Source: Bosea vestrisii | GTDB taxonomy: Bacteria > Pseudomonadota > Alphaproteobacteria > Rhizobiales > Beijerinckiaceae | DNA length: 64,000 bases | Direction of reading: 5' to 3' | Assembly (NCBI RefSeq): GCF_030144325.1 | Contig: NZ_CP126307.1 | Location: forward strand, 459,748 to 523,747 | Shown here: positions 14,462-35,692 of the stretch, piece by piece | How positions within the stretch are numbered: position 1 is the first letter of the stretch | Layout of the letters: every line of letters begins with the position of its first letter | Made by a program: the position numbers and the translations under genes | Notes under the pieces: generated by a model | What the model was told of the DNA's origin: nothing | The model's input: only the letters and a program-made list of their open reading frames with translations | Databases searched by the model: none

Positions 14462-14520
14462 GTCCTGCCCCCAAGCCGGATCAGATTGAGTCCGCCGCGT
14501 CGCCTTGGCAAGCACTCGCT

Positions 14521-15711: not shown

Positions 15712-15775
15712 GGCATCCTCGGGTCGCAATCGCATTTCCTGAGCCATGCCCCGCGAGCACGCCGACCGCAAGCCG

Positions 15776-16342
15776 CTAGAGATCGAGACCAGCTTGTCGC
15801 AAAGGCAGGGCCCGTGCGCTCTCGCCGGATCTCAGCTCGCTATGACGCACGATCGCGGCGCTCATGCTGACCCGGTAGCGCTCGCTCAGCGCGGTCGCGT
15901 CGAGCTCACGTACCACCGGCGTATCCGGAATCAGGAACGCCGCCGCATAGCGCCGCGCCTGATATTCCATCGACCGGAGCCGCGCCGAAACCCGCTCGGC
16001 TCGTCCGCCAGCCGGTGCACGGTTGAGATTGCCGTCATGGCCGAGCAGTGCGTGGCCGACCTCGTGTGCGACCGTCATCAGCGCCCTGCCCCCGCCGCGA
16101 TCGGCGGCCTGGAGCACGCTTTCCGGGATCAGCAGGCGCTTCCCCAGCGAATCCCACTGCGCCTCGGCCTCGCCAAGCGAACCATCGGGCACCTGCTCGT
16201 AGGAGAACTCCGGGTAGCGCGCCTTTAGCCTGGCCAGCAGCGTCATGGCATCGACGGCCTGATCGTCAGAAAAGCCGAGTCCGCGCCGATGCGCCAGGGC
16301 GCGGGCGTCGATCTGGGCGTCGGTGAGGAAGGCATGGCGCAT
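15776..16342 (-). CDS. ImmA/IrrE family metallo-endopeptidase (COG2856-like), stand-alone
   Basis: HEXXH motif in VAHEVGHALLGH with a downstream EYQARRYAAAFLIP, the COG2856 E...A.FA..LL.P motif. Start ATG 16342 is preceded by an AGGAGG SD. No adjacent XRE/HTH partner gene. Confidence 0.65.
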   Translation of the reverse strand: MRHAFLTDAQIDARALAHRRGLGFSDDQAVDAMTLLARLKARYPEFSYEQVPDGSLGEAEAQWDSLGKRLLIPESVLQAADRGGGRALMTVAHEVGHALLGHDGNLNRAPAGGRAERVSARLRSMEYQARRYAAAFLIPDTPVVRELDATALSERYRVSMSAAIVRHSELRSGESARALPLRQAGLDL

Positions 16343-20576: not shown

Positions 20577-20815
20577 CGGCGAAGGTCTATACGGCGGCCG
20601 CCCACGTTCCAGCCCGCCTTGCAGCCAAACTCGAACGAGATCAAAGGGCAATAAGACCAACTGCCCCATGCGCCCGATGCAGGCCCGTCAGCCCATCGCC
20701 GGCCTCGACGGCTGTCCTGCATTGCCGGAAGACCAGTCCAACGCCGCGATCCCTTGGCTCCGTCTGTTCGGATGCCAAAGGGCATAGACACGTCGACGAG
20801 GCTGGGGGACCTGGT

Positions 20816-22033
20816 TTGAAGCTGCCGTTATGGGGGAGCGCCCTGAGCGCGACTCTCCTTGTGCAAGTCGTGAGTTCGTTCGCCGCTGCCGCGATCCCGC
20901 TGCTTGGGCCGATCCTGACGCTGCGTTGGGGCCTGGCGCCTGAAAACATCGGCTATGTTTCGGCCGTCGTCTCGGTCGGGATCTGCTGGTTTCTGGCCTG
21001 TGGCGGCCCGATGCTCGATCACCACGGCCCCATCCGCACGTTGCAACTCGGCCTGATCTTCGTCGTCGCGGGCCTGGCGCTCCTGTCGCAGCCGGCCATT
21101 TCGCTCGGGCTCGCCGGAGCGCTGCTCGTGGGTCTGGGGCTGGCGCCTAACACACCCGCCGGTAGCCAGGTCCTGATGCGCACCGCGCCGGCCGGACATC
21201 GCACGCTGATCTTCTCGATCAAGCAGGCGGGCGTGCCGCTCGGAGGGGCGATCGCCGGCATTACAGTCGCGCCTTTGGTCCTGGCGTTCGGCTTCATCGG
21301 CGCGGTTTCGACCATCATCGCCGTCGTGCTTGCCTGCACCGTGCTGGTCCAGGCCTTTCAGCCGCGGCTCGATACGGAACGGGGCCCCCGAAACCGGGGC
21401 TGGCCACGCCTGTTCCTGTCGCCATCGTCGCTGACGAGAGCAGCCCGCATCATCAACGCCCATCCGGGGTTGCCGATGCTCACCGCGATCGGGATTTCGT
21501 TCTCGATCACGCAAGCCTGCATCACGGCCTTCACCGCGACCTACATGGTCGTCCAGCATGGCGCGAGCCTGGCCCAGGCCGGGCTCTATATGTCGGTGCT
21601 GCTTGCGACGAGCACGGTCGCACGCATCGTCTTCGGATGGCTGGCGGACCGGTTGGGATCGGGCCTTCTGCTCCTGTCGGTCCTGGCGCTGGCCGCGGGC
21701 AGCGCAATCCTGCTGCTGGTGTGGTCGGCAACGGCAAGCCCCTGGCTGGTCTATGGCTGCATGGCGCTGGTCGGGGCGACATCGATGGGCTGGAACGGGG
21801 TTCACATGGCCGAGCTCGCGAGGGTTTCGCCGCTTGCGATCATTGGCGATGTGACGTCGAGCGCCAGCATGTTCGGCTTCATCGGCTCGATCTGCGGACC
21901 GTTGGTGTTCGCCATGATTGCCAGCAAGACCGGAAGCTTCACCTGGCCCTTCGTTCTTGTCGCTGGTCAGCTAATCGCCTTCGGGGCGTTCGCTCTCGTC
22001 ATCGGGCGGTTCGTCTCCCGATCGCATCGATGA
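20816..22033 (+). CDS. MFS transporter
   Basis: About 12 TM helices (LSATLLVQVVSSFAAAAIPLLGPIL..., ...GWLADRLGSGLLLLSVLALAAGSAILLL...). The long ORF from 20252 overlaps tenA, so the start is placed at the in-frame TTG 20816, which follows a GGGGGA SD. Start is uncertain. Confidence 0.65.
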   Translation: MKLPLWGSALSATLLVQVVSSFAAAAIPLLGPILTLRWGLAPENIGYVSAVVSVGICWFLACGGPMLDHHGPIRTLQLGLIFVVAGLALLSQPAISLGLAGALLVGLGLAPNTPAGSQVLMRTAPAGHRTLIFSIKQAGVPLGGAIAGITVAPLVLAFGFIGAVSTIIAVVLACTVLVQAFQPRLDTERGPRNRGWPRLFLSPSSLTRAARIINAHPGLPMLTAIGISFSITQACITAFTATYMVVQHGASLAQAGLYMSVLLATSTVARIVFGWLADRLGSGLLLLSVLALAAGSAILLLVWSATASPWLVYGCMALVGATSMGWNGVHMAELARVSPLAIIGDVTSSASMFGFIGSICGPLVFAMIASKTGSFTWPFVLVAGQLIAFGAFALVIGRFVSRSHR

Positions 22034-22268
22034 GAGGCGCATCGCGCCCGGTACGCCCCGGGATAGTCCACGCGATTCCGACGGCTAAGGTTCGGTAGCT
22101 TCCCGAGCGGGAGCCTTTCGCCAGCGAAAAGCAGACCCTCGGCAATATCTACGACCTTGGCAGTAGACCGGCCTGTGCTAGCCTAGATTTAGAGCGGAAC
22201 AAAAATCCGCCATCGGCTCCGCCGTTGGAAACCTTCGGCGCGGTCGGCCACGCAGGGAGGTGAATGCA

Positions 22269-23519
22269 ATGCGGAAGGCACTTATGGCCGCCGTTGCGGT
22301 CGGCGCTTTGATTGCGGCCGGTGGGACCGGCCAGGCTCAGGAAAAGCTCAAGATCGGCATGCTGGCGACGCTTTCGGGCGCGCTGACGTCGGGTGGCGAG
22401 GACGGTGTACGCGGTGCTCAGGTCGCCCTGAAGCAGCGTGGCGGCAAGATCGCCGGCCGCGAGGTCGAGTTCATCATCGCAGCGACCGACGCCAGCCCGG
22501 ACTCTGCGCTTCGGGCCGCGCGCAAGCTCGTCGAGCAGGACAAGGTCCAGCTCATCCTCGGCCCACTTTCGGGCTCCGAGGGCATCGCGATGCGCGACTA
22601 CTCGAAGACGGTTCCTAACGTCACTGTCGTCGACGCATCGTCGGGAGCGCTCGAGACCACCTACGTCAATCCATCGCCGAACTATTTCCGCTTCAACAGC
22701 AACGGCGCCATGTGGATGGCAGGTCTCGGCGACTACGTATTCAAGGACAAGGGCTACAAGAAGCTTGCGGTCATCGGCGAGGACTACTCCTTCCCCTATA
22801 CGCAGGTCTTCGGCTTCGCGCTCGGCTACTGCAAGGCCGGCGGCCAGATCGTGCAGCGTCAGTGGGTGCCGCTCGGCACCAAGGATTTTGGCTCGGTGAT
22901 CGCCAATATCCCCGATGACGTCGACGCCGTCTTCCTCGCGCTCGGCGGCGGCGACTCCGTCAACTTCCTCAACCAGTACGGTCAGACCGGCGGCAAGGCG
23001 AAGTTCGTCGGCGGCTCGATCATGGTCGACCAGACCGTGCTGTCGTCGCGCGGTAACGCCAAGCGCCTGCTCGTCGGCACGCCCTCCTCGGGCGGCGTCG
23101 CCGATGCCTGGGACGATCCGAAATGGAAGGCCTGGGTCAAGGCCTACCAAGACGCATTCCCGGCGGATAAGCGCTTTGCCAGCCCGTCCCTGTTCGCGAC
23201 CAATTATTACAATGCCTTCAACGGCATGGCGACAGGCCTTGAGAAGGTCAACGCCGACCTCTCCGATGGCGGGACCAAGCTTCGGGCCGAACTCGCCAAG
23301 GTCGAGCTTGATGCCCCGAACGGCCCGATCAAGCTCGACGACAACCGGCAGGCGATCGCCACGACATTCATCACCGAAGTCGTCGAGGCGGCCAATGGCG
23401 ACCTCACCAACAAGTTCGTCAAGACGGTGCCGAACGTCTCGCAGACGCTCGGCCTCTCCGCCGAGGCGTTCAAGGCCGTCGGGCTTCCGTCCCGGACCAA
23501 TCCGGAATGCAAGCCCTGA
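22269..23519 (+). CDS. ABC transporter substrate-binding protein, branched-chain amino acid (LivK/Peripla_BP_6) family
   Basis: A signal peptide (MRKALMAAVAVGALIAAGGTGQAQ) and a periplasmic-binding-protein type I fold (...KIGMLATLSGALTSGGEDGVRGAQVALKQ...). GGGAGG SD lies 8 nt upstream of ATG 22269. Confidence 0.85.
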   Translation: MRKALMAAVAVGALIAAGGTGQAQEKLKIGMLATLSGALTSGGEDGVRGAQVALKQRGGKIAGREVEFIIAATDASPDSALRAARKLVEQDKVQLILGPLSGSEGIAMRDYSKTVPNVTVVDASSGALETTYVNPSPNYFRFNSNGAMWMAGLGDYVFKDKGYKKLAVIGEDYSFPYTQVFGFALGYCKAGGQIVQRQWVPLGTKDFGSVIANIPDDVDAVFLALGGGDSVNFLNQYGQTGGKAKFVGGSIMVDQTVLSSRGNAKRLLVGTPSSGGVADAWDDPKWKAWVKAYQDAFPADKRFASPSLFATNYYNAFNGMATGLEKVNADLSDGGTKLRAELAKVELDAPNGPIKLDDNRQAIATTFITEVVEAANGDLTNKFVKTVPNVSQTLGLSAEAFKAVGLPSRTNPECKP

Positions 23520-23541
23520 TCGCTTCCACTGACTGACTCTC

Positions 23542-23577
23542 CGGGAAGGGACGCAACAGGAAACGCGCCCCTTCCCG
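23542..23577 (+). terminator. Stem-loop downstream of the SBP gene (possible terminator or attenuator; no T-run)
   Basis: CGGGAAGGG-N18-CCCTTCCCG inverted repeat 23 nt after the SBP stop. It lacks a U tract, so intrinsic termination is uncertain. Confidence 0.25.
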
Positions 23578-23689
23578 CCTACCGTCCCGCTCCGGTCAAC
23601 GACGTCGCGCGCGATCCGCCTGCGCCGTCGGGCGAAGGCTCACCTGATGAGGCCGCCTTGCGCCACCGGGCATTGCTACGCGAGGAGCC

Positions 23690-24544
23690 ATGAGTCGCGC
23701 AGTCGCGGTCTGCCACGGTCCGTTCGGACGGGTATCGATCTACGATCTCGATCGCCCGATGGTGGTGCATGCGCATCGCGAAGCGCATCTGATCTTCTTC
23801 CTCGAGGGCTCACAGGGCCTGGTTACGGTCAACGACCAGACCGTGCGCGTCGACCCTTTCATGGGCGTTGCCGTCAACCCCTGGGAACCGCACAATTTCC
23901 AGCCGGAACAACCCGGCTCGTTCGGCCTATTCCTCGTCGTCTATCTCAAGCCGGAATGGCTGGCCAAGCAGACCATGTCGGCGCCCGGCTCGCTGGTTTT
24001 TCCGTCCTCCGAACTGGTCGTGACCCGCGAGCTCGAGGCCTGGCGCGATCAGGCCATCGACATGCTGCTGTCCCGGCATAGCGAGCTCAACCTCGCCCCG
24101 GTGCTCATGGCGCTGGCGCTGGCGTCGAGCGAACCGATCGAGTCCCATCTCGCCTCCTCGCTGCTGCATCTCACGTCGGAGTCCGCACTCGACCGGCGCG
24201 TGCTGCGCGCCCGCCGGCTGTTGGAACAGTATCCCTCCCATGAGGGCGCACTTGTCCGCGTGGCGCGCGAGGCCGGGCTGTCGCGCGCCCATTTCTTCAA
24301 GCTCTTCCGCGAGCAGGTCGGCGTCACCCCGACGATCTTCGCCAATACGGTCCGGCTCGATGCGGCGCTCGACCGGATCGTTCTCTCGAACGATCCGGTG
24401 ACCAGCATCAGCCACAGCCTCGGCTTCTCCGGCCAGAGCGTGTTCACGCGCTTCTTCACCGCCCATATGGGCATGGCGCCACGCGACTACCGGCGGGTGC
24501 TGCGGACGGTGGGCCTGCCGCAATCGCAGGCGAGCCATGTCTGA
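23690..24544 (+). CDS. AraC family transcriptional regulator (cupin-like N-domain + AraC HTH)
   Basis: C-terminal ...LVRVAREAGLSRAHFFKLFREQVGVTPTIFANTVRLDAALDRIVLSNDPVTSISHSLGFSGQSVFTRFFTAHMGMAP... is the AraC-type double HTH. Confidence 0.85.
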   Translation: MSRAVAVCHGPFGRVSIYDLDRPMVVHAHREAHLIFFLEGSQGLVTVNDQTVRVDPFMGVAVNPWEPHNFQPEQPGSFGLFLVVYLKPEWLAKQTMSAPGSLVFPSSELVVTRELEAWRDQAIDMLLSRHSELNLAPVLMALALASSEPIESHLASSLLHLTSESALDRRVLRARRLLEQYPSHEGALVRVAREAGLSRAHFFKLFREQVGVTPTIFANTVRLDAALDRIVLSNDPVTSISHSLGFSGQSVFTRFFTAHMGMAPRDYRRVLRTVGLPQSQASHV

Positions 24545-25550
24545 TTTCATCGGCCGCCGCCCGATCTGGTCGCTGGTCATCCTGATCGCGATCGCCCTCC
24601 TCGCCTTCCTGGTCTTCGCGGTCTGGACGCCGTGGATGGAGCTGACCTTCGGCAGGAAGCGCGTCTTCCTGAGCGCGCTCTTCAACGGCATCACGCTCGG
24701 CGGGCTCTATTTCCTCGTCGCCAGCGGCTTCACGCTGATCTTCGGCCTGATGCGCAACGTCAATCTGGCGCATGGCTCGCTTTATCTGTTCGGCGGCTAT
24801 GTCGGCTACAGCATCGGCAACCTGACCGGCTCCTGGTTCGCCGCGCTCATCGGCGCCTTCGTCATCGTCGCTTTGGCCGGCATGCTGATGCAGGTGCTGC
24901 TCTTCCGCTGGATGGAAGGCCAGGACCTGCGCCAGACGCTGGTCACGATCGGCCTCTCGATCATCGTCGCCGACCTTCTGCTCTGGAGCTATGGCGGCGA
25001 CACCTTCCAGGTGACGACGCCGGACTGGCTCTCCGGACCGATCCAGCTGCCTTTCGTCGTCGCGCTGCGCAGCAATGGCGAGGCGGTGATGATGATGTAC
25101 CCGCTGGTCCGCATCGCGATCCTGATCGGCGCGATCATCCTTGGCGTCGCGATGTGGCTCGTGCTCAACCGCACCCGCATCGGCATGCTGGTGCGCGCCG
25201 GCGTCGACGACCGCGACATGCTCTCCGCCACCGGCGTGCGCGTGCAGCTCGTCTTCATCATGGTCTTCGCCTTCGGGGCCGGGCTCGCCGGTCTCGCCGG
25301 CGTCGTCGGCGGCACCTTCCAGTCGCTCCAGCCCGGCGAGGATACCAAGATTCTGCTGTCCTCGCTCGTCGTCGTCATCGTCGGCGGCATGGGCTCGATC
25401 CCAGGCGCGGCGATGGGTGCGCTCATCGTCGGCCTCGCCGAGCAGTTCGGCTCGGTCTACATGCCGACCTATGCGGTGATGCTGACCTTCGTCATCATGG
25501 TCGTGGTGCTGGCGATCCGGCCGCAAGGCCTGGCAGCGGTGAGGCGCTAA
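24537..25550 (+). CDS. Branched-chain amino acid ABC transporter permease (LivH-like)
   Basis: ...ALFNGITLGGLYFLVASGFTLIFGLMRNVNLAHGSLYLFGGYVGYSIG... The start overlaps the AraC stop by 8 nt; the alternative start MELTFG at 24633 removes an extra N-terminal TM. Confidence 0.8.
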   Translation: MSDFIGRRPIWSLVILIAIALLAFLVFAVWTPWMELTFGRKRVFLSALFNGITLGGLYFLVASGFTLIFGLMRNVNLAHGSLYLFGGYVGYSIGNLTGSWFAALIGAFVIVALAGMLMQVLLFRWMEGQDLRQTLVTIGLSIIVADLLLWSYGGDTFQVTTPDWLSGPIQLPFVVALRSNGEAVMMMYPLVRIAILIGAIILGVAMWLVLNRTRIGMLVRAGVDDRDMLSATGVRVQLVFIMVFAFGAGLAGLAGVVGGTFQSLQPGEDTKILLSSLVVVIVGGMGSIPGAAMGALIVGLAEQFGSVYMPTYAVMLTFVIMVVVLAIRPQGLAAVRR

Positions 25551-25552
25551 AG

Positions 25553-26641
25553 ATGGCGCTCGCAGAACCCCGCCTCGCAATTGCGACTCCGCGCCAGCGC
25601 GAAGGGCTCAGCGAGGTGATCGCCCGGCAGGGCACGGCCTTCTGGATTGTCGCAGCCCTGCTGCTGATGATGCCGCTGATCGCGAACCCGTTCTGGCTCG
25701 TCCAGATCCTCGCCTACGCGATGATCCTCGGCATGATCGCGCTCAGCCTGATGTTCCTTGCCGGCTATGGCGGCATCGTCAGCCTGATCCAGATGACGGT
25801 CGCGGCCTTCGCCGCCTATCTCGTCGCCATCTTCGGCGACAGCGCCATCACCCAGATCAGCCTGAAATGGCCGTGGTGGACGGCGGTGCCGGTCGCGATC
25901 CTGCTCGCCACTTTGTTCGGCACGCTGGGCGGCGCACTCTCGGTCAGGACCGAGGGCATCTACACGATCATGATCACGCTCGCGATCGGCTCGGCATTCT
26001 ACTACCTGACGCTGCAGAACTACACGATCTTCAATGGTTTCAGCGGCTTCAACGGGGTTCTTCCTCCGGTCTTCCTCGGGGTCGACTGGGGCAGCACCGT
26101 GCCGTTCTATTACCTTGCGCTCGGCTGCGCCGCCCTCGCTTATGCGGTCGTCGTCTATGTCTCGCGGGCGCCCTTCGGCCTTGCCTTGCAGGGCACGCGC
26201 GACAATCCCAGGCGCATGGCGGCGCTCGGCTTCGACGTCGTCGCCCATCGCATCGCCGCCTATGCCTTTGCCTCGGTGATCGCCGCGTTCGCCGGTGTGC
26301 TGCTGGTCTGGTATCAGCGCCAGGTCTCGCCCGGGACGGGCGGTGTCGGGCCGGTGGTCGACATGCTGATCATCGCCGTGGTCGGTGGATTGAGCCGCCC
26401 GATCGGCCCGTTCATCGGCGCGCTCGTCTATGTGCTGCTGCGGACCTTCGCGCTCGACCTGCTCGAAGCGGTCGGGTTCGAGGGCAAGCGCTATCAGCTG
26501 CTCATCGGCCTCGGCTTCCTCGTCATCGTGCTGTTCTCGCCGGACGGGCTGATCGGCATCTGGCAGCGCCTGCGCGAGCGCTATCGTCGCGGCCGCGAGA
26601 CGCAGGCAGCACAGATGCGCGTCGGCGGAGGCTCGCCATGA
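25553..26641 (+). CDS. Branched-chain amino acid ABC transporter permease (LivM-like)
   Basis: The second BPD_transp_2-type permease (...LAYAMILGMIALSLMFLAGYGGIVSLIQMTVAAFAAY...). ATG 25553 lies 3 nt after the LivH-like stop. Confidence 0.85.
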   Translation: MALAEPRLAIATPRQREGLSEVIARQGTAFWIVAALLLMMPLIANPFWLVQILAYAMILGMIALSLMFLAGYGGIVSLIQMTVAAFAAYLVAIFGDSAITQISLKWPWWTAVPVAILLATLFGTLGGALSVRTEGIYTIMITLAIGSAFYYLTLQNYTIFNGFSGFNGVLPPVFLGVDWGSTVPFYYLALGCAALAYAVVVYVSRAPFGLALQGTRDNPRRMAALGFDVVAHRIAAYAFASVIAAFAGVLLVWYQRQVSPGTGGVGPVVDMLIIAVVGGLSRPIGPFIGALVYVLLRTFALDLLEAVGFEGKRYQLLIGLGFLVIVLFSPDGLIGIWQRLRERYRRGRETQAAQMRVGGGSP

Positions 26642-27426
26642 GCGCCGTGCCGAGCCTGGAGCGGCTGAGCACTGCCAGCTCGGGCAATGCGCTCGAACTG
26701 CGCGGCGTCTCGCGCCTGTTCGGTGCGCTCGCGGCCCTGTCCGACGTCACGCTGTCGGTCCGGCCCGGCGAGCGGCGCGCCGTGCTCGGCTCGAACGGGG
26801 CCGGCAAGACCACGCTGTTCAACTGCGTCACCGGCGATTTCACGCCGAGCTCCGGCGTCATCCGCTTCTTCGGCGAGGATGTTACGACATTCCCGCCGCA
26901 TGAGCGCATCCGCCGCGGGCTCAGGCGCACCTACCAGATCTCGTCGCTCTTCGCCGGGCTGACGGTGGTCGACAATGTCTACCTCGCCTGCCGCGGCGTC
27001 TCGCGGAACCGTTTCTCGCTGCGGCGGCCGCGCCGTGACGACACGCTCCAGCATGCTGCCGAGAGCCTGGTCGATGCCGTCCATCTCACGGCCGTCAAGG
27101 ACAGGCTGGTCGGAGAGCTTGCCTATGGCCAGCAGCGCCAGCTCGAGATCGCCCTCGCCCTCTCGGGCGCACCGCGCTTCATCCTGTTCGACGAGCCGGC
27201 GGCGGGCCTGTCGCCGACCGAGCGGCAGGATCTCGTCCGGATCCTGACCTCGCTGCCGGCCCATATCGGCTACATCATCATCGAGCACGACATGGACGTG
27301 GCGCTACGCGTCGTCGAGAGCGTGACGATGATGCACAACGGCCGCATCTTCAAGGAAGGACGGCCCGACGAGATCGAGTCCGATCCCGAAGTGCAGGAAC
27401 TCTATCTCGGGGGCGGTCATGGCTGA
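26638..27426 (+). CDS. ABC transporter ATP-binding protein (LivG-like)
   Basis: Walker A GSNGAGKTT, signature YGQQRQLEIALAL and Walker B ILFDEPAAGL. ATGA overlap with the upstream permease. Confidence 0.85.
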   Translation: MSAVPSLERLSTASSGNALELRGVSRLFGALAALSDVTLSVRPGERRAVLGSNGAGKTTLFNCVTGDFTPSSGVIRFFGEDVTTFPPHERIRRGLRRTYQISSLFAGLTVVDNVYLACRGVSRNRFSLRRPRRDDTLQHAAESLVDAVHLTAVKDRLVGELAYGQQRQLEIALALSGAPRFILFDEPAAGLSPTERQDLVRILTSLPAHIGYIIIEHDMDVALRVVESVTMMHNGRIFKEGRPDEIESDPEVQELYLGGGHG

Positions 27427-29662
27427 GCGCCTGAAAGCCCCACCCGCCGCCGGCGTTCCGATCCTGCAGATCGCGGGCTTGAATGTCTTCTACGGCCGCT
27501 CGCACGCCGTCCAGGGTGTCGACCTCACGCTGCAGCACGGCGTCCTCTCCGTCGTCGGTCGCAATGGCATGGGCAAGACGACCATGTGCAAGGCGATCAT
27601 GGGGCTGGTCCCGATCGCATCGGGCTCGATCCGCTTCTTCGGCGAGGAGATCGCCGGCCGCTCGCCGGCCGAGGTGGCGCGACTCGGCATCGGCTATGTG
27701 CCGCAAGGCCGCCGGCTCTGGCGCTCGCTGACGGTCGACGAGCATTTGCGGCTGATGCAGCGCGGCAAGCGCGGCGCCTGGACGCCGGAGCGCATCTACG
27801 AGGTCTTCCCGCGCCTGGCCGAGCGCCGCAGCAATGGCGGCGGCCAGCTCTCCGGCGGCGAGCAGCAGATGCTGGCGATCAGCCGGGCGCTGCTGCTCAA
27901 TCCCCGCTTGCTGGTCATGGACGAGCCGACCGAGGGGTTGGCGCCGGTCATCGTCGCCCATGTCGAGGAGATGCTGGTCCGGCTCGCCGACCAGGGCGAT
28001 GTCGCGATCCTGGTGATCGAGCAGAACATCGGCGTCGCCACGCAGATGTCCGACCCCGTCGCGATCATGGTCAACGGCCGGATCAACCGCATCATCGCCT
28101 CGGCGACGCTCGCCGGCGACCGCGAGCTGCAGCAGCGCCTGCTCGGCGTCGGCCGCCACGGCCATGACGATACCGATGCGGCCTTGGACACCGCGCGTCC
28201 CGGCACGGCCGCAGAGGCCGCCTCCCCCGCCCCGACCGGACCGATCCGCGTCTATGTCTCGAACCCGGTTATCCCGAACCGCTGGTCACAAGCCGTGCCG
28301 GCCGCCCGTATCGAGGCTCAGGCCCGCACCATCTCGCGCCCGACGCTGGCGACCCGCGATGGCCAGCCGATCGGCGGGGTCCGGCCGCTCGCGGCTGCGG
28401 CGAACAGCGAGCCCTATGTGGTCGTCGCCGGCACGCTCGACACCAAGGGCGAGGAGCTGCGTTTCATCCGCGACCTGATCCGGGCCGAGGGGTTGCGCAC
28501 CCGTCTCGTCGATCTGTCGACATCCGGCCGCAGTGCCGGGGGTGACGTCACCCCGCAAGAGGTCGCCCTCGCCCATCCGAAAGGCTCGGCCGGCATCTCC
28601 TCAGGCGATCGCGGCACGGCGGTCGCGGCGATGACCGAGGCGTTCAAAGCCTGGCTGCCGCGCCAGCAGGGCCTGCTCGGCATCATCTCGGCCGGCGGCT
28701 CGGGCGCCACCGCGATGGTAACGCCGGCGATGCAGGCGCTGCCGGTCGGCCTGCCCAAGTTGATGATCTCGACCATGGCGTCGGGCGATGTCCGCGCCTA
28801 TGTCGGCGCCACCGACATCGCGATGCTGCACGCCGTCACCGATGTGCAGGGCATCAACCGTGTCTCGCGCCTCGTGCTCGGCAATGGTGCGCACGCCATC
28901 GCCGCCATGGCCAAGGCCCGCCTCGCCGAGCTCAAGCCCGAAGGGCCGCGCCGCCGGGAGCCCGAGAAGCCGCTGGTCGGGCTCACCATGTTCGGCGTGA
29001 CCACGCCTTGCGTCCAGCAAGTCTCCAGGCTCCTCGCCGCGGAATGGGAACCGCTCGTCTTCCACGCCACCGGCACCGGTGGCCGCTCGCTGGAGAAGCT
29101 GGTCGATTCCGAGCTCGTCAGCGCGGTGATCGACGTCTCGACCACTGAGATCTGCGACATGCTGATGGGCGGCATCCTGCCGGCGACGGAGGACCGTTTC
29201 GGCGCGATCATCCGCACCCGCATCCCCTATGTCGGCTCGGTCGGCGCGCTCGACATGGTGAACTTCGCCGCGCCCGAGAGCGTGCCCGAGCGCTATCGCG
29301 GCCGCCTCCTCTATCCGCACAACCCGCAGATCACCCTGATGCGGACCACGTCGGAGGAGAACACGCGTATGGGCCGCTGGATCGGCGAGCGGCTGAACCA
29401 GATGGAAGGGCCGGTCCGCTTCCTGATCCCCGAGCTCGGCGTCTCCGCCCTGGATGCACCCGGCCAGCCTTTCCACGACCCGTCCGCCGATGCGGCGTTG
29501 TTCCAGGCGCTGGAGCAGACGGTGCGCACCAGTTCGAACCGGCAGCTCATCCGCCTGCCGCTCCACATCAACGACCCCGCCTTCGCCTCGGCATTGGTGC
29601 AGCAGTTCCGCACCCTGCACGCCGGGAGGCGGCGCGAGCGGGCCGGCGGAGGCAGGTCATGA
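27419..29662 (+). CDS. ABC transporter ATP-binding protein (LivF-like, aa 1-~245) continuing in frame into a UPF0261/Tm-1-like domain (aa ~330-747); possible fusion
   Basis: N-terminal GRNGMGKTT...[16 protein letters not shown]...[13 protein letters not shown] is a LivF-like ATPase, normally ~240 aa ending about ...[10 protein letters not shown]. There is no stop for another 1.5 kb. After an Ala/Pro-rich ~85-aa linker comes ...[24 protein letters not shown]...[21 protein letters not shown]...[12 protein letters not shown]..., a UPF0261 (PF06792) domain. An in-frame GTG at 28418 ([13 protein letters not shown]) could be an independent UPF0261 start. Confidence 0.55.
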
Positions 29663-30540
29663 CGAGCTTCGACAAGAAGGCCCTGCTGAAACGCTTCCGG
29701 GCGATGATCGCCAGGGGCGAGCCGATTGTCGGCGGCGGCGCCGGCACGGGCCTGTCCGCCAAATGCGAAGAGGCCGGCGGGATCGACCTGATCGTGATCT
29801 ACAATTCCGGCCGCTACCGCATGGCCGGCCGCGGCTCGCTCTCCGGGCTGATGCCCTATGGCGACGCCAACGCCATCGTCATGGAGATGGCGGCCGAAGT
29901 GCTGCCGGTCGTGAAGACAACGCCGGTGATCGCCGGCGTCTGCGGCACCGATCCGTTCCGGCGCATGGATGTCTTTCTCGACGAGGTGAAGCGCATCGGC
30001 TTTGCCGGCGTGCAGAACTTCCCGACCGTTGGCCTGATCGACGGCACCTTCCGCGCCAATCTCGAAGAGACCGGCATGGGCTTTGGGTTGGAGGTCGAGA
30101 TGATCGCCCTTGCCAACGCCAAGGGCCTGCTGACCACACCTTACGTCTTCTGCGAGGACGACGCCCGCGCGATGGCAAAAGCCGGCGCCGACATCATCGT
30201 CTGCCATCTCGGTCTCACCACCGGCGGCTCGATCGGCGCCGAAACGGCGCTCAAGCTCAAGGACTGCCCGGCGCTGGTCGAGCGCTGGGCGAAGGCTGCG
30301 CTCGCCGTGAAGAAGGATGCGATCATCCTCGTCCATGGCGGGCCTGTCGCCGAGCCGGCCGACGCCGACTTCATCATGAAGAACACGGTCAACTGCCACG
30401 GCTTCTACGGCGCGTCCTCGATGGAGCGCCTGCCGGTCGAGGTCGCGATCCGCGACCAGACCCGTGCCTTCAAGCAGATCGGCCGCGCAGCCAAAGCCAG
30501 CAAGCCGGCACGCAAGCCCGACAAAGGCACGAAACCATGA
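29659..30540 (+). CDS. Phosphoenolpyruvate hydrolase-like TIM-barrel protein (PF09370; homolog of the Tm-1 C-terminal domain)
   Basis: ...[61 protein letters not shown]...VCGTDPFR... is the characteristic PF09370 N-terminus. ATGA overlap with the preceding ORF and a GGAGG SD. Confidence 0.8.
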
Positions 30541-30551
30541 GCATTCGGCTC

Positions 30552-30680
30552 ACCCTCAGCCCTCATCCTGAGGAGCCGCGAAGCGGCGTCTCGAAGGATG
30601 ATCCAGGAGACTCCGGAACCATCTGGAGCATCCTTCGAGACGCGCCTGCGGCGCTCCTCAGGATGAGGGCTGAAGGGGAA
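30552..30680. repeat. Nested palindromic REP/MITE-like element (20-bp perfect outer inverted repeat + 13-bp inner inverted repeat)
   Basis: Outer arms CAGCCCTCATCCTGAGGAGC / GCTCCTCAGGATGAGGGCTG; inner arms GTCTCGAAGGATG / CATCCTTCGAGAC. Spurious translations read ...HPEEPRSGVSKDD...ILRDAPAALLRMRAEG..., a pattern I recall from a widespread alphaproteobacterial intergenic repeat family. Confidence 0.5.
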
Positions 30681-30715
30681 GGCGCGAACGCGGCGCTGGC
30701 GGGGAGAACATCACC

Positions 30716-33471
30716 ATGACGGGGCAACTGATCGGATCGCTGATCCTCTGGCTGATCGTGGCGGTGATCATCATCGCCATCGTCGTCTATCTGGTGAACT
30801 GGCTCTACCGCCGGTCCTCGAAGGAGGTCTCCTTCGTCCGCACCGGCCTGTTCGGCGAAAAGGTGGTGATCAATGGCGGCGCCTTCGTGCTGCCGATCAT
30901 CCACGACGTCACGCCGGTCAACATGAACGTGCTGCAGCTCGCGGTGACGCGGGCGAGCAACGATGCGCTCATCACCCGCGACCGGATGCGCGTCGACATC
31001 GACGCCGAATTCTATGTCCGAGTGAAGCCGGAGCGGCAGTCGGTCTCCATCGCAGCCGCCACGCTCGGCCGGCGCACCCTGCAGCCGGACCAGCTCCATG
31101 CCCTCCTGTCCGGCAAGTTCATCTCCGCTCTCAGGACGGTCGCCTCCGAGATGACGATGGAGGAGATGCACGAGCAGCGCGGCGCCTATGTCCAGCGCGT
31201 CAAGGATGCCGCCGCCGAGGCGCTCGACCAGAACGGCCTCCTGCTGGAATCGGTTGCGCTCACCGATCTCGACCAGACCGACCTGCAATACTTCAACCCG
31301 TCCAACCGCTTCGACGCCGCCGGTCTGACGCGGATCATCGAGGAGATCGAGGACAAGCGGAAGCTTCGCAACGACATCGAGCAGGACTCGATGATCCGCA
31401 TCCGCACCCGCAACCTCGAAGCCGAACGCCAGGCGCTCGACATCGAACGCGAGAGCGAGACGGCGCGTCTCGAGCAGCAGCGCGAAATCGAGATCAAGCG
31501 CGCCATGCAGCGCACCGAGGTCGCCCGCGAGCGCGCCATCCGCGACACCGAGGCGGAGCAGGCCCAGATCACCTCGCGCGAAGAGATCGAGAAATCACGC
31601 ATCGCCAATGAGCGCGGGATCAGCGAAGCACGCATCGCTTCGGAGCGCGACATCCGCCAGCAGGAGATCGCCCGGACGCAGGCCGTCGAGGAGGCGGAGA
31701 TCGCCGCGCGCGAGCATGTCGAGAAGGCGCGCATCGCCAACGAGCAGACGATCAATGCCGTCCGCATCGCCTCCGAACGCGAGATCAGGCAGCAGGAGAT
31801 CGAGCGCACCAGGGTGCTGGAAGCAGCCGAGATCGAAGCGCGCGAGTCGACCGAGAAGGCGCGCATCCTGCAGGAAACCGCGGTGAGTGCCGAGCGCATC
31901 ACCCGCGAGCAGGAGATCCGCAATCGCGAGATCGAGCGCACCCGCACGCTCGACCAGGAAGACATCGCGGCGCGCGAGGCGGTCGAAACCTCCCGCATCG
32001 GCCAGGAAGAGCGCGTGCGCGCCCTCCAGATCGCCCGCAACAGAGCGCTGGACGAGGCTGAGATCAGCGCGCGTGAAGCGGTCGAGAAGGCAAGGATTGC
32101 CCAGGAGGACGCGATCACGGCCGACCGGATCGCCCTAGACCAGCGCAAGAGCCTGCTCGAGATCGGGCGTACCGAAGCGATCGACACCGCCGAAATCTCG
32201 GCCCGCGAAGCGACCGAAGCCGCCCGCATCGGCCAGGAGAAAGCCGTCGCGGCCGGTCGCATCGCCGCCGAACTCGCGACTAAGGGGCTCGAGATCAAGC
32301 GCAATGCCGAGCTCGACACCGCCGAGCTGAAGCGCCGCGACGCGGTCGAGCGCCAGCGGATCGCAACCGAGCTCGGTCTCGACGAAGAGCGGATCAATTC
32401 GAGCAAGACCCGCGAGATGCTGCAGATCGCCCAGAAGAAGGCGGTCGAGGTCGCCGAGGAAGAGCGCGCTATCGTGCTCGCCGCCAAGAAGGTCGAACGC
32501 GCCGACGCCGACAAGACACTGCGCCAGGCCGAGATCACCGCGCGCCAGCATGTCGAGACCGTCGACATCGCCCGCGAGCAGGCGCTGGAAGCGGTGCGGA
32601 TCGAGCGTCGCCGCGCGCTTGAGCAATTGGAAATCGCGCGCAATCAGGCGCTGCAGGAGGCGCAGATCGTCTCGAACGAGGAAGTCGAGCGGGCGCGTAT
32701 CTCCTCCGATCGCGGCCTCGACGAGGCCCGTATCGGTCGCCAGCGCGAGCTGCGCAAGCTCGAGATCGGGCGCGAACGCGAGGTCGAGGCGGCCGCCATG
32801 GACAAGGCGATCGCGCTCTACGCCAAGTCGCTGGAGGAATCGGCGGCGCAGGTCAGTGCCGAGATTGCCCGCGCCAAGGCGGTCGAGGCCGAGGAAAAGG
32901 TCAAGACCGTCCGCGAGAGGAGAGCGCGCAGCGGCGCAAGACCGTCGAGATCCTGCTCGCCGAGAAGGCCGCCGAAGAATCCCGCATTGCGTCCGAGGCC
33001 GAGAAGGTGCGCCGCGCCGTCGATGCCGAGGCGCAGAAGCTGCTCTACGAGGCCGAGAACGTGCTCAGCGACGGCGCCCGCTACGGGCTGTTCCGGCGGC
33101 GCCTGCTCGACAAGATCGAGGGCATCGTCCGCGAGAGCGTCAAGCCGATGGAGAAGATCGAAGGCATCCGCATCCTTCATGTCGATGGGCTCGCCGGTGC
33201 GGCCAGCGGCGCCGGTGGCGCCGCACGCTCGCCCACCGACGAGGTCATGGAGTCGGCGCTGCGCTACCGGGTCCAGGCGCCGATGATCGACCAGGTGCTG
33301 AAGGAGATCGGCATCGAGGGCGGCAATCTCGCCAAGATGGGCGGGCTCATGCGCGAGGCCTCGGACATGCAGCGCGTCGCCAAGGAAGCGCAGCCGGCCA
33401 AGCCGAAGGACAGTGGCGGTGAACCTGCCCCCGAAGGTGGCGGTCGCTCCGGCCCCCGCAAGAAATCGTGA
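30716..33471 (+). pseudogene. Flotillin-like SPFH/band-7 protein (YqiK-like) with long coiled-coil tandem repeats; single frameshift near 32915-32925
   Basis: N-terminal TM plus SPFH (...VSFVRTGLFGEKVVINGGAFVLPIIHDVTPVNMNVLQLAV...), then ~10 imperfect ~44-aa repeats (EAEIAAREHVEKARIANEQTINAVRIASEREIRQQEIERTRVL...). The frame-1 tail after ...KVKTVRE is Arg/Ser/Pro garbage. The true C-terminus (QRRKTVEILLAEKAAEESRIASEAEKVRRAVDAEAQKLLYEAENV...ILHVDGLAGAASG...) continues in the +2 frame to 33471. Confidence 0.65.
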
Positions 33472-33482
33472 GGCGCTGACCG

Positions 33483-33920
33483 ATGGCCCGCGTCTACGTT
33501 TCCAGCGTCATCGCCGCTCCCGCCGTCAAGGTCTGGGCCCGGGTGCGCGACTTCAACGGCCTGCCGAACTGGCACCCCCGCATCGCCGAAAGCCGGATCG
33601 AGAACGGCGAGCCGGCCGACAAGGTCGGCTGCATCCGCGCCTTCTCGCTGCGCAGCGGCGACCGGCTGCGAGAGCAGCTGCTCGGCCTCTCCGACTACGA
33701 TATGTTCTGCACCTATGCGATCCTCGACTCGCCGATGCCGCTGACGAACTACGTCGCGACGCTCAGGCTGACGCCGATCACCGACCAGGAGCGGACCTTC
33801 ATCGAGTGGTCGGCCGATTTCGACTGCGCGCCGGAGCGCGAGGCCGAGCTCGTCGCCGGCATAGGCACCAATGTCTTCCAGGGCGGTTTCGACGCCCTCA
33901 AGCGCGCCTTTGGGGGATAG
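33483..33920 (+). CDS. SRPBCC (Bet v1-like) family protein, CoxG-like
   Basis: 145 aa: ...SVIAAPAVKVWARVRDFNGLPNWHP...TLRLTPITDQERTFIEWSADFDC... is a polyketide-cyclase/CoxG-type fold. It lies immediately upstream of the Cox-like subunits. Confidence 0.7.
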   Translation: MARVYVSSVIAAPAVKVWARVRDFNGLPNWHPRIAESRIENGEPADKVGCIRAFSLRSGDRLREQLLGLSDYDMFCTYAILDSPMPLTNYVATLRLTPITDQERTFIEWSADFDCAPEREAELVAGIGTNVFQGGFDALKRAFGG

Positions 33921-33922
33921 CC

Positions 33923-34375
33923 ATGCCCCATGTTGTCCGCAGCACGATCATCGATACGCCGGCGGACCGGCTCTGGTCGGTCCTGCGCGACTTCAACGGA
34001 CACGACAAATGGCACCCCATCGTGGTGCGGAGCGAGATCGAACGCGCCTACCCGGCCGACCGGGTCGGCTGCGTCAGGCGCTTCGTCCTGCGCGACGGCA
34101 GCGAATTGCGCGAGCAGCTGCTTACGCTCTCCGATCTCGAGATGACCTTCAGCTACTGCCTGCTCGATACGCCGATCCCGCTGTTCAACTACGTCGCCCA
34201 TGTCCGGCTGCTGCCGGTGACCGACGGCAATCGCAGCTTCTGGCACTGGGAAAGCCGCTTCACCACGCCACCCGGGCGGGAGGCGGAACTCGCCAGACTC
34301 GTCGGCGACGAGGTCTACACCAACGGCATCGAGGCGGTCCGCCGCCTGCCCGCGATCGTCGGCGAGGAGGTCTGA
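33923..34375 (+). CDS. SRPBCC (Bet v1-like) family protein, CoxG-like paralog
   Basis: 150 aa: ...STIIDTPADRLWSVLRDFNGHDKWHP...HVRLLPVTDGNRSFWHWESRFTT... It is clearly paralogous to the preceding gene. Confidence 0.7.
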   Translation: MPHVVRSTIIDTPADRLWSVLRDFNGHDKWHPIVVRSEIERAYPADRVGCVRRFVLRDGSELREQLLTLSDLEMTFSYCLLDTPIPLFNYVAHVRLLPVTDGNRSFWHWESRFTTPPGREAELARLVGDEVYTNGIEAVRRLPAIVGEEV

Positions 34376-34376
34376 C

Positions 34377-35198
34377 ATGCTCGATCTGAGAACCTGCGCG
34401 AGCCTGTCGGAAGCCGCCGGCATCGTCTCCGGCGATCGCCAGGCGCTGCTGATCGGCGGCGGCACCCTGGTGATGCGTGAGGTCAACGAGGGCCGGCTGA
34501 CCGAGGGCACGCTCGTGCGCGTCACTGATCCGGCCTTCCGCCAGATCAGCGCCGGCGGCGCCCGCGTCGAGCTCGGTGCCGGCGTGACCATGGCGATGGT
34601 GCTGGCCAACCGCGAGCTCGCCTGTCTGCATGCGCCTGCACGCGGCATCGGCGGGCCGGCGGTCCGGACGATGGCGACGATCGGCGGCAATCTTTTCGCC
34701 GCTGCGCCCTATGGCGACTTCACCGTGGCGCTGCTGGCGCTCGATGCGCAGGTCGTGCTGCAATCCGGCTATGGCTCGGGCCGGGCGGTATCGCTGGAGG
34801 ATTTCCTGAGCGCGCGCGAACGCGGCGGCCAGGGCCTGGTCACCGCCGTTCAGTTCGCCAGGCCGCAGAACCCGCCCGAGCTCCACTTCCGCAAGATCAG
34901 CCGGGTCAAGCCGAAGGGCATCTCGGTGCTCTCGATCGCGGCCTATTTGCCGCTCTCGGGTGGCCGCGTCACGCAGGCGCGCGTCGCCTATGGCGCGATG
35001 GCGCCGACCCCGATCCGCGCCCGCGGCGTCGAGCGCGCCCTCGACGGCAAGCCGCTCGACCAGGCGGCGATCCAGGCGGCAAAGCAGGCGGCGCTCGAAG
35101 GCTGCCGGCCGGCGACCGACGCAATCGCGAGCGAGTGGTACCGGCGCGAGATCCTCCCCGTCCATCTCGGCCGGCTCCTGGCCGGCGAACCCCGCTGA
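34377..35198 (+). CDS. Xanthine dehydrogenase family FAD-binding subunit (CoxM-like medium subunit)
   Basis: ...ALLIGGGTLVMREVNEGRL... and ...MATIGGNLFAAAPYGDFTVALLALDAQVVLQSGYG... match the FAD_binding_5 plus CO_deh_flav_C layout. Confidence 0.85.
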   Translation: MLDLRTCASLSEAAGIVSGDRQALLIGGGTLVMREVNEGRLTEGTLVRVTDPAFRQISAGGARVELGAGVTMAMVLANRELACLHAPARGIGGPAVRTMATIGGNLFAAAPYGDFTVALLALDAQVVLQSGYGSGRAVSLEDFLSARERGGQGLVTAVQFARPQNPPELHFRKISRVKPKGISVLSIAAYLPLSGGRVTQARVAYGAMAPTPIRARGVERALDGKPLDQAAIQAAKQAALEGCRPATDAIASEWYRREILPVHLGRLLAGEPR

Positions 35199-35209: not shown

Positions 35210-35692
35210 ATGGCCAAGCTCCCGGTCCAGTTCCGCCTCAATGGCAGCGATCGCGCCACCTTCGTCGACCCGGCGAGCAATCTGCTCGATACGCTCCGCC
35301 GCGGGCTCGGCGACTTCGGCCCGAAATATGGCTGCGGCCAGGGCACCTGCGGCGTCTGCACCGTGCTGGTCGACGGCGAGCCGCAACTCGCCTGCCTGAC
35401 GCTCGCGGCCTCCTGCGAGGGCCGCCAGATCGAGACCACCTCCGGGATGGCTGATGGCCCCGAGCTGCATCCGCTGCAGGCCGCCTTCATGGACCATTTC
35501 GCCGCGCAATGCGGCTTCTGCACGCCGGGCATGCTGACCGCCGCGCGGGCGCTGCTGGCAAAGAACCCGCATCCAAGCCGGGACGAGGTCGTCGAGGCGA
35601 TCAGCGGCAACATCTGTCGCTGCACCGGTTACGAGCCGATCATCGCCGCCATTCTCGCCGCAGCGGACGCGCCCGGCGCGCGCCGGGCCTGA
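35210..35692 (+). CDS. (2Fe-2S)-binding small subunit of xanthine dehydrogenase family (CoxS-like)
   Basis: Plant-type ferredoxin cysteines GCGQGTCGVCTVLVDG and a second cluster motif CGFCTPGML...[18 protein letters not shown] upstream. Confidence 0.85.
   Translation: MAKLPVQFRLNGSDRATFVDPASNLLDTLRRGLGDFGPKYGCGQGTCGVCTVLVDGEPQLACLTLAASCEGRQIETTSGMADGPELHPLQAAFMDHFAAQCGFCTPGMLTAARALLAKNPHPSRDEVVEAISGNICRCTGYEPIIAAILAAADAPGARRA

Follow-up and report, generated by a model that had tools for sequence, protein, structure and literature searches.

An ABC importer ATPase fused to a Tm-1-like UPF0261 module is conserved in Alphaproteobacteria

Why would an importer ATPase carry a module related to a plant antiviral protein at its C-terminus? 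The question is raised by a 64,000-nucleotide (nt) stretch of Bosea vestrisii DNA (assembly GCF_030144325.1, contig NZ_CP126307.1, positions 459,748 to 523,747), which we call the window and whose positions are used as coordinates throughout. One gene in it (27419-29662, on the plus strand, as are all genes described below from the binding-protein gene onward) encodes a fusion of 747 amino acids (aa) that consists, by Pfam and NCBIfam, of a LivF/UrtE-like ATPase of an ATP-binding cassette (ABC) importer, a linker and a UPF0261 module. UPF0261 proteins and the TIM-barrel proteins of family PF09370 form a pair that occurs widely among bacteria and archaea and that plants have taken over as their antiviral protein Tm-1. 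The original prediction for this locus, a reading of the letters alone, had listed a periplasmic substrate-binding protein (SBP), an AraC-family regulator, two permeases, two ATPases, UPF0261 and PF09370, and Pfam confirmed each of them in its predicted place. Its background, that the two domains are encoded by adjacent genes in bacteria and are fused in plant Tm-1, is also correct: the arrangement is documented (PMC5028733), we found adjacent pairs on plasmids (see below), and a plant-type fusion (P0190) was among our matches.

Genes were called by listing and translating open reading frames (ORFs) in six frames and searching the products against Pfam. Relatives were collected by a scan with one genome per species, which gave at least 573 matching stretches; the best 80 loci, which are the closest relatives (at least 64% identity), were kept. 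In all 80 loci, taken from genomes and metagenome-assembled genomes (MAGs), the ABC and UPF0261 halves share one stop-free frame, and the fusion ORF is 715-754 aa long except at one locus ended by a contig edge. These loci come from Bosea, Aquabacter, Enterovirga, Microvirga, Phreatobacter and Rhabdaerophilum, from Bradyrhizobium, Pseudolabrys and Methylobacterium MAGs, and from Hyphomicrobiaceae, Geminicoccaceae, Paracoccaceae and other Rhodobacterales. In the window, third-position GC is uniformly high along the fusion ORF (0.90), and an identical (100%) 747-aa protein (P0001) is on record for B. vestrisii; the ORF is not one that stands open by chance in GC-rich DNA. The run of the ATPase frame into UPF0261 without a stop was thus read correctly by the original prediction, which had named as the case against itself a stop codon between the two genes in orthologous loci and a missing link to the transporter; we found the opposite, a continuous frame and complete linkage in the 80 closest loci. 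Among more distant proteins, the full-length fusion clusters P0121-P0124, P0130 and P0143, with 41-58% identity, emerged when representatives at 50% identity were searched exhaustively. A word-indexed search seeded with P0130 gave about 120 more fusion clusters at 90% identity, many of them from marine Rhodobacterales; they include Roseobacter, Sulfitobacter and Shimia, and also Roseibium, Hoeflea and Rhizobium mongolense. The fusion is genuine, selected and conserved in hundreds of Alphaproteobacteria, with many 50%-identity clusters across Hyphomicrobiales and Rhodobacterales. Most of the ATPase::UPF0261 fusions are labelled "ABC transporter permease" by NCBI and UniRef although they have no membrane domain, while JGI gives them two-part names.

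Both ends of the fusion were compared in an alignment of 62 fusions with 57-93% identity (A1), and motifs were counted in 259 full-length relatives. The nucleotide-binding domain (NBD) occupies aa 1-249 (27419-28165), with ABC_tran at aa 32-171 (E = 3.5e-25) and a score of 221 bits against the UrtE cut-off of 286. Its Walker A motif, signature LSGGEQQ, Walker B motif LLVMDEP and LivF-type EQN are invariant in A1, and the NBD motifs are present in 250-252 of the 259 relatives. By these residues the head looks like an active ATPase. The tail (28415-29617) comprises the N and C domains of UPF0261 (PF06792, aa 333-501, E = 4e-59; PF23189, aa 517-733, E = 3e-89) and passes NCBIfam model NF002673 with 599 bits against a cut-off of 520. 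It carries the motifs GTLDTK, FGVTT, FHATG and HNPxxTLMRT, all four of which are retained in 236 of 259 relatives. K343, the lysine of GTLDTK, is invariant in the 62 aligned sequences, and GT[LFM]DTK was found in 245 of 259; G526, T528/T529, H549 and H634 are likewise invariant in A1.

A search of the PDB by sequence matched the tail to Tm-1 (3wry, E = 3e-94) and MarK (9mpy, E = 3e-59). The tail aligns over its full length with the inhibitory domain of Tm-1 (3WRV-3WRY), including the ATP-contacting lysine: K343 aligns with K20 of Tm-1, which equals K16 of MarK. MarK (Saro_1862) is the first UPF0261 protein with a shown reaction, the phosphorylation of acetovanillone and related phenols with conversion of ATP to ADP, and its E16K exchange, at the position of ATP-contacting Tm-1 K20, raises activity about 1600-fold (PMC12624787). 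The statement in the original prediction that the bacterial function of these domains is unknown is therefore partly outdated, while it holds for the Tm-1-like branch, which is without a known reaction. MarK has the same two-domain fold and is the only biochemical precedent, and the equivalents of its K16, G195, H219 and H304 are kept in the tail: G195 and H219, which are ligands of the phenol oxygen, and the stacking H304 correspond to G526, H549 and H634. MarK differs in being a stand-alone homodimer encoded beside acvCDEF carboxylase genes, with no PF09370 partner, and a kinase activity of the tail is putative; acvCDEF/hpeCBAD carboxylase or phosphatase genes were not found in the window between 14500 and 44960 or in related loci. 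Tm-1 differs in that it is fused to PF09370, whose TIM barrel is homologous to the Tm-1 C-terminal barrel, whereas here UPF0261 is joined to an ABC ATPase, PF09370 is a separate coupled gene, and the setting is an uptake and catabolic island and not an antiviral one. From the conserved residues the tail looks like an active enzyme, and its fold and ATP site speak for an ATP-dependent reaction on a ligand that bears a hydroxyl group but is not acetovanillone.

Between head and tail lies a conserved linker segment (aa 276-304, 28244-28330) with the pattern Y..NP..P.RW...VP...I...ART, flanked by two variable spacers. Its mean identity of 0.62 is comparable with that of the domains (0.65-0.79), whereas the spacers score 0.25 (aa 250-275) and 0.23 (aa 305-332). 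N282, P283, P286, R288, W289 and A302 are invariant in A1, and the motif P-x-R-W-[ST] was found in 243 of 259 full-length relatives, and also in P0124 and P0130, whose tails are degenerate. AlphaFold2 (AF2), run with A1, predicted the domains with confidence (pLDDT mostly 80-98; NBD about 80-93, UPF0261 about 90). Since the linker segment is conserved and yet modelled with low confidence, it has the look of a motif that depends on a binding partner.

The next gene (29659-30540) encodes the PF09370 "phosphoenolpyruvate hydrolase-like" TIM-barrel protein (E = 8e-130, positions 2-267 of the 267-position profile), and its start codon overlaps the fusion stop in an ATGA, so that the coupling proposed in the original prediction is real. 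The protein matches the solved structure 2p10 (Mll9387) with E = 3e-117 and about 70% identity over 270 residues. Synteny was counted by tblastn of the window proteins against the 80 loci, with loci whose contig reaches far enough as denominators; PF09370 is kept in 76/76, and in most of them it starts between -10 and +10 nt from the fusion stop. Inserts of 139-205 nt separate the two genes in L002, L003, L010, L014, L027, L071 and L075.

More distant fusions show that the integrity of the tail goes with PF09370. The contexts of eight of these (L081, L083-L088 and L091) were annotated with Pfam. PF09370 was not found within 10 kb on either side in L081/L082 (P0130) and L086 (P0124), and it is not the next gene downstream in L085 (P0143), a contig of 6.8 kb. 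In these loci the tail is only 28% (L081/L082), 43% (L086) and 25% (L085) identical to that of the window, whereas the ABC half keeps 64-75% identity; GTLDTK, FGVTT, FHATG and HNPxxTLMRT have been lost from the tails of L081, L086 and L085. The other island proteins of the loci without PF09370 are as conserved as those at loci of similar distance. Tail identity is 49-66% in loci with PF09370; the five distant ones (L083, L084, L087, L088 and L091) have tails with 49-59% identity and intact motifs. Thus, among distant loci the tails are degenerate in 3/3 without PF09370 and intact in 5/5 with it, in addition to the 76/76 close loci, and the constraint on the putative active site of the tail goes with PF09370. 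The tail is retained at full length even after the motif constraint has been lost. P0130 is a singleton, and its nearest relatives, about 50% identical, are of the intact-tail type; the degenerate tails may be remnants in decay or domains put to a new use. The opposite kind of decay was seen on a single contig, L087 (10001-12157, P0137), where the NBD has a degenerate Walker A motif and the tail, PF09370 and a large protein with a 47% flotillin match are intact; neither an SBP nor a second ATPase gene lies nearby.

The fusion belongs to an importer of the HAAT family (TC 3.A.1.4), which has all its parts here: an SBP of the Peripla_BP_6 type, two BPD_transp_2 permeases, and LivG-type and LivF-type ATPases. 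The SBP (22269-23519; PF13458, E = 3e-58) starts with an ATG at 22269, 9 nt past GGGAGG, and its N-terminus, MRKALMAAVAVGALIAAGGTGQAQE, is a signal peptide as expected of a HAAT binding protein. It is followed by the AraC-family regulator (23690-24544), which Pfam resolves into an AraC_binding/cupin ligand domain and HTH_18, the LivH/UrtB-like permease (24537-25550; BPD_transp_2, E = 8e-34; best NCBIfam match UrtB), the LivM/UrtC-like permease (25553-26641; BPD_transp_2, E = 1e-32) and the LivG/UrtD-like ATPase (26638-27426; ABC_tran and BCA_ABC_TP_C by Pfam, with NCBIfam), whose end shares 8 nt with the beginning of the fusion gene. A database search for LivF-UPF0261 fusions and for synteny across Rhizobiales, the check attached to the original prediction, found fusions and neighbours recurring together: the SBP is kept in 68/68 loci, the LivH-like permease in 74/74, and the LivM-like permease and the LivG-like ATPase in 76/76 each, the same count as PF09370. 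The araC gene is kept in 69 of 71 loci and is missing from the minimal cores L084 and L088. From araC to PF09370 neighbouring genes overlap by 4-8 nt, except for the permease pair with its 2-nt gap. A scan of 21800-35000 for promoters and terminators gave no signal above shuffled expectation, so transcription units were read from the gene overlaps alone. The araC stop and the LivH-like start overlap by 8 nt (24537-24544, ATGTCTGA), while in distant loci the two genes lie 150-300 nt apart. By this overlap, the regulator and the transporter that it presumably controls appear to be transcribed together and coupled in translation in Bosea.

The components and operon order are those of LivJHMGF, UrtABCDE and CouPSTU, from which the importer differs in that its LivF-like subunit has a C-terminal extension of about 500 residues and the operon runs into flotillin and SRPBCC genes. 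All NCBIfam equivalog cut-offs for LivJHMGF and UrtABCDE were missed. The parts scored best on urea-transporter models, far under the cut-offs (bits against cut-off: UrtA 72/493, UrtB 172/250, UrtD 200/304, UrtE 221/286; LivF 142/441), and with every equivalog cut-off missed a specificity for branched-chain amino acids or urea was rejected. The proposed wiring of the pair to an amino-acid-type importer is therefore conserved as wiring, as the synteny shows, while "amino-acid-type" was an overstatement. The solved structures closest to the SBP are 4zpj, 4ey3/4eyg/4eyk, 4evq, 4evs and 4f06. Of these, 4ey3, 4evq, 4evs and 4f06 are reportedly binders of benzoate derivatives from Rhodopseudomonas palustris (Michalska et al. 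2012). HAAT importers of aromatic acids are documented, CouPSTU being one of them (PMC3610893).

Upstream, a major facilitator superfamily (MFS) transporter gene (20795-22033) lies just 5' of the SBP gene, concealed within a 593-aa ORF that begins with TTG; its frame was picked by third-position GC. The MFS gene and the neighbouring TenA, MerR and GGDEF genes were rejected as members of the unit, since their synteny is confined to the closest Bosea genomes.

Downstream, the original prediction had ended the unit at 30540, which is too early: the close loci continue into a flotillin gene and two SRPBCC genes wherever the contig is long enough, most of the distant ones do so too, and Bosea-type loci add a molybdenum (Mo) hydroxylase, MoxR/VWA genes and hydrolases. 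The flotillin of about 918 aa (30716-33471) combines a Band_7/SPFH domain (PF01145), a long coiled coil and a Flot domain (PF15975). It thus has the domains of a flotillin, and it misses the FloT equivalog cut-off (43 vs 700). The gene is kept in 70/70 loci, and a flotillin or a large unannotated protein is encoded 3' of the fusion in distant loci (L081, L083-L088 and L091). In the window it is frameshifted by a 1-nt deletion near 32920 (GAGAG-GAGAG vs GAGAGCGAGAG in L001), which puts the Band_7 ORF (30716-33286) and the Flot domain (33007-33471) in separate frames. Intact flotillin ORFs of 916-965 aa were found in L001, L003, L061 and L008, and the break in the window either stems from an error in sequencing or marks a gene that has recently become a pseudogene. 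Between PF09370 and flotillin (30541-30715) lies a palindromic insertion of about 130 nt that is 81.5% self-complementary and resembles a repetitive extragenic palindrome (REP) or miniature inverted-repeat transposable element (MITE). The palindrome lies at the same junction in the Bosea loci L002, L012, L028, L010, L027, L026 and L070 and elsewhere in L021 and L052; it is absent from L001, where the gap between PF09370 and flotillin is about 35 nt. The two tandem SRPBCC genes (33483-33920 and 33923-34375; Polyketide_cyc2/START-like, Pfam E = 9e-28 and 1e-17) are kept in 69/69 loci, and of the eight distant loci six have SRPBCC genes (L081, L083, L084, L086, L088 and L091).

The Mo hydroxylase is of the xanthine dehydrogenase family and consists, by Pfam, of an FAD subunit (34377-35198), a 2Fe-2S subunit (35210-35692) and a large subunit whose two genes (35707-37470 and 37472-38515) part at the MoCoBD_1/MoCoBD_2 boundary. 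The FAD subunit is kept in 67/67 loci, the N part of the large subunit in 63/63 and the C part in 62/62. The same split recurs in L081, L086 and L091, with a gap of 0-1 nt or a 1-nt overlap, although the fusions there are about 42-57% identical. The best solved match of the N half is the large subunit of nicotinate dehydrogenase from Eubacterium barkeri (3hrd_A, E = 1e-54). Like the window's enzyme, this dehydrogenase has an FAD and a 2Fe-2S subunit, and its large subunit is also divided, at the same domain boundary (3HRD). No NCBIfam equivalog cut-off was reached by the Mo hydroxylase. A CO dehydrogenase is unlikely, because its models score under the matches to xanthine dehydrogenase, 4-hydroxybenzoyl-CoA reductase and nicotinate dehydrogenase. 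The MoxR, VWA_CoxE and SRPBCC neighbours resemble coxD, coxE and coxG of aerobic CO dehydrogenase in function, whereas the SRPBCC genes match PF10604 and the CoxG family is not among the reported matches. Pfam further recognised a MoxR-type AAA protein (38520-39404), a VWA_CoxE protein (39714-40829), an Amidohydro_2 hydrolase (40826-41707; nearest L-fucono-1,5-lactonase, below cut-off), a metallo-beta-lactamase-fold hydrolase (41725-42573; nearest 4-pyridoxolactonase and N-acyl homoserine lactone lactonases, below cut-off) and a 538-aa fusion of SMP-30/gluconolactonase with an amidase-like isochorismatase domain (42588-44204; below the NCBIfam cut-off). All NCBIfam matches of these accessory proteins were below cut-off. 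In L081, L086 and L091, MoxR/VWA genes are followed by an amidohydrolase or Lactamase_B gene.

Which of these genes belong together can be seen from the distant loci. The smallest set was found in L088 (P0123, 52%), where LivH, a small ORF, LivM, SBP, LivG, the fusion, PF09370, flotillin and two SRPBCC genes are bounded by recA and unrelated genes on the opposite strand; L084 (P0122) has the same minimal core as far as its contig goes. The Mo hydroxylase is accessory, being absent from L083 and L088. In L083 (P0121), flotillin and SRPBCC are present, PF09370 is divergent and 5' of the permeases, and an SRPBCC::Zn-alcohol dehydrogenase fusion (14461-15951 of that locus) stands where the other loci have a second SRPBCC gene and, in Bosea-type islands, the Mo hydroxylase. 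The full Bosea-type island is found in L081, L086 and L091, with an Fe-alcohol dehydrogenase gene between SBP and AraC, beside which the Yoonia plasmid L091 adds an aldehyde dehydrogenase. The recurrent core is a five-component importer with a tailed ATPase, PF09370, flotillin and two START-like proteins, while the regulator and the oxidoreductases vary.

Unfused and alternative forms also exist. In L095/L096 (93-7544), an operon encodes UPF0261, a cupin, PF09370, LivH, LivM, SBP, LivG and a plain LivF of 247 aa. Its 410-aa UPF0261 protein, with intact motifs, is 47% identical to the tail, and the other identities are 59% for PF09370, 60% for LivH, 50% for LivM, 51% for SBP, 63% for LivG and, for LivF, 58% to the ABC half. 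Thus, the tie of this transporter clade to the Tm-1-like pair is independent of the fusion. Furthermore, P0233 (L094, 6472-8424) is a LivF-like ATPase from the same kind of HAAT operon that has the linker motif as P-I-T-R-W-T and an alpha/beta-hydrolase as its tail; the contig ends just 3' of its gene. This architecture fits a tethering platform for enzymes. Stand-alone sets of UPF0261, PF09370 and cupin genes lie on Sinorhizobium meliloti pSymA and a plasmid of Mesorhizobium sp. AR07, beside other ABC importers and oxidoreductases. The stand-alone system may thus include the small cupin as its third member, one that the fused form lacks. Plasmid records matching the tail number 346; among those listed or inspected the sole fusion is that of Yoonia (H3), and the two studied closely are stand-alone. 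The closest stand-alone UPF0261 representatives, P0138 and P0142, are on contigs of 1.4-1.9 kb. Short representatives considered as unfused LivF proteins with the linker motif were rejected, being mostly frame-garbled or cut sequences.

What, then, might the fusion do? The original prediction had the pair act on, sense or gate an imported small molecule, and the choice lies between acting on it and gating. We propose that a Tm-1-like ATP-dependent enzyme is held on the importer and acts with PF09370 on the imported compound, and we put the probability of this reading at about 50%. The SBP would hand a small organic compound, possibly hydroxylated and aromatic or heteroaromatic, to the permeases and the two ATPases for import. 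The UPF0261 module, on a tether of about 85 residues at the cytoplasmic mouth of the transporter, would use ATP to modify the compound or its first product, most likely by a MarK-like phosphorylation of a hydroxyl group, and the coupled PF09370 protein would then act on the product. Flotillin and the two START-like proteins might organise or serve a membrane-bound assembly, in Bosea-type loci the nicotinate dehydrogenase-like Mo hydroxylase and the hydrolases would take catabolism further, and the AraC regulator would set expression. We favour this reading because the fusion is conserved with head and tail that both look active, a UPF0261 kinase precedent exists, PF09370 is coupled to the tail, and the unfused operon L095/L096 pairs the same modules. 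It is favoured also because an unrelated hydrolase takes the place of the tail in P0233, the linker segment is conserved, aromatic-acid HAAT importers are known, and the neighbours are catabolic (the Mo hydroxylase, lactonase-like enzymes and amidase-like domain of the window, and the Fe-alcohol dehydrogenase and Yoonia aldehyde dehydrogenase of related loci).

Several points weigh against this proposal. The Tm-1-like subfamily found with PF09370 has, to our knowledge, no described activity, and MarK is more distant and without PF09370. The tail does not have the substrate pocket of a MarK-type aromatic kinase: four of seven pocket residues are changed (T196V, F283M, I285N and H348L), as they are in Tm-1, so that any substrate must differ. 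Full-length tails without the putative catalytic motifs (P0124, P0125, P0130, P0133, P0143, P0145 and P0156) suggest that the tail has an additional, non-catalytic role. The remainder of the island persists without PF09370 in L081 and L086, and the pair is thus not indispensable to it. No Liv or Urt equivalog cut-off was reached, so the transporter families name no substrate. AF2 gave no geometry between head and tail (pTM 0.55, linker pLDDT below 50, residues 244-329 of low confidence). MarK and Tm-1 form homodimers through their N subdomain (PMC12624787), whereas a LivG/LivF heterodimer gives one tail per transporter.

The non-catalytic role points to the alternative that survives best, in which the tail regulates or gates the importer. 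It would sense ATP and/or a cytoplasmic metabolite, which PF09370 possibly makes or binds, and would turn the ATPase on and off like the C-terminal domains of MalK, MetN, ModC and OpuAA. All ABC regulatory domains known to us sit C-terminal to the NBD, as the tail does, and the full-length tails of the motif-less lineages would suit a binding or structural role. Moreover, the UPF0261 domain of Tm-1 binds the helicase domain of tobamoviruses, a P-loop NTPase, with ATP at the interface (PMC12624787), and binding to an NBD is thus not far-fetched; the conserved linker segment could dock on the NBD dimer. However, the extra domains of MalK, MetN (C2/NIL), ModC and OpuAA (CBS) are small, ligand-binding and dimeric on homodimeric NBDs. 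The fusion has an extra C-terminal domain as they do, but in place of a small TOBE, NIL or CBS fold it is an enzyme-like, ATP-binding module of 400 residues, on one subunit of a heterodimer and at the end of a long linker of low confidence. The residues of the ATP site and those binding the substrate hydroxyl are invariant in the main family, the constraint on the tail tracks an enzyme-like partner, the unfused operon L095 makes do with a plain 247-aa LivF, and AF2 predicted no contact between head and tail. The hydrolase at the same position in P0233 is also hard to read as a regulator. We therefore consider regulation possible, with the odds clearly against it.

A bolder form of the tethered-enzyme proposal, vectorial chemistry, we regard as rather doubtful. 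Here the tail would phosphorylate or otherwise ATP-activate the solute as it leaves the translocation path, PF09370 would process the product, and the whole would sit in a flotillin-scaffolded patch with START-like carriers and, in some loci, the Mo hydroxylase. Group translocation by the phosphotransferase system, PnuC with NadR kinase, and vectorial acylation by FadL/FadD share the logic of our main proposal, in that a solute is modified on entry so as to be trapped or activated, a coupling that is putative at this locus; they have no homology to the proteins described here, and in none of them is the enzyme that modifies the solute part of an ABC ATPase.

It is unlikely that the fusion serves only co-expression or stoichiometry, as in a Rosetta-stone protein, with UPF0261 and PF09370 an ordinary soluble enzyme pair of the same pathway. 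Stand-alone pairs are common beside other transporter families, cupins and oxidoreductases, the same transporter type has an unfused operon in L095/L096, and the long tether is predicted by AF2 to be disordered. On the other hand, the fusion has been stable across two or more orders of Alphaproteobacteria, none of the 80 loci having reverted, the linker holds a strongly conserved segment besides spacer, and the tails persist past the decay of their motifs. In L087, a single contig, a degenerate NBD has kept the tail, PF09370 and the flotillin match, which hints that membrane anchoring is selected. Finally, that the 747-aa ORF is an artefact, a frameshift, lost stop or misassembly joining livF to a separate UPF0261 gene, could be argued from the apparent 1-nt frameshift in the window's flotillin gene and from frame-garbled database relatives (P0162 and P0148), and we reject it as highly improbable given the continuous frame in 80/80 loci, the identical protein on record, the uniformly high third-position GC and the in-frame conserved linker motif.

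The components are members of known families and the fusion is visible in databases, though misnamed, so it is not categorically new. A full-text search found no paper describing an NBD::UPF0261 fusion among the papers searchable, and in this sense the original prediction, which did not recognise the arrangement as described, stands, while hundreds of copies were already in the databases. What is new is the recognition of a large conserved HAAT family whose LivF subunit bears a Tm-1-like module, together with the linker motif of the fusion, its recurrent partnership with flotillin and START-like proteins, and the correlation between tail integrity and PF09370. The name "ABC transporter permease" hides hundreds of these fusions from searches. 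The soluble SBP offers an easy handle: the compound that it binds should reveal what the UPF0261/PF09370 pair acts on, or a close precursor of that substrate. If the tethering is mechanistic, this would be a rare ABC importer ATPase that carries a metabolic enzyme, and it would connect a bacterial flotillin with a specific transporter in a genetically defined way. If vectorial chemistry is true, we would be dealing with a metabolon anchored to a transporter, and it would show which biochemical function was ancestral to the Tm-1 resistance protein of plants.

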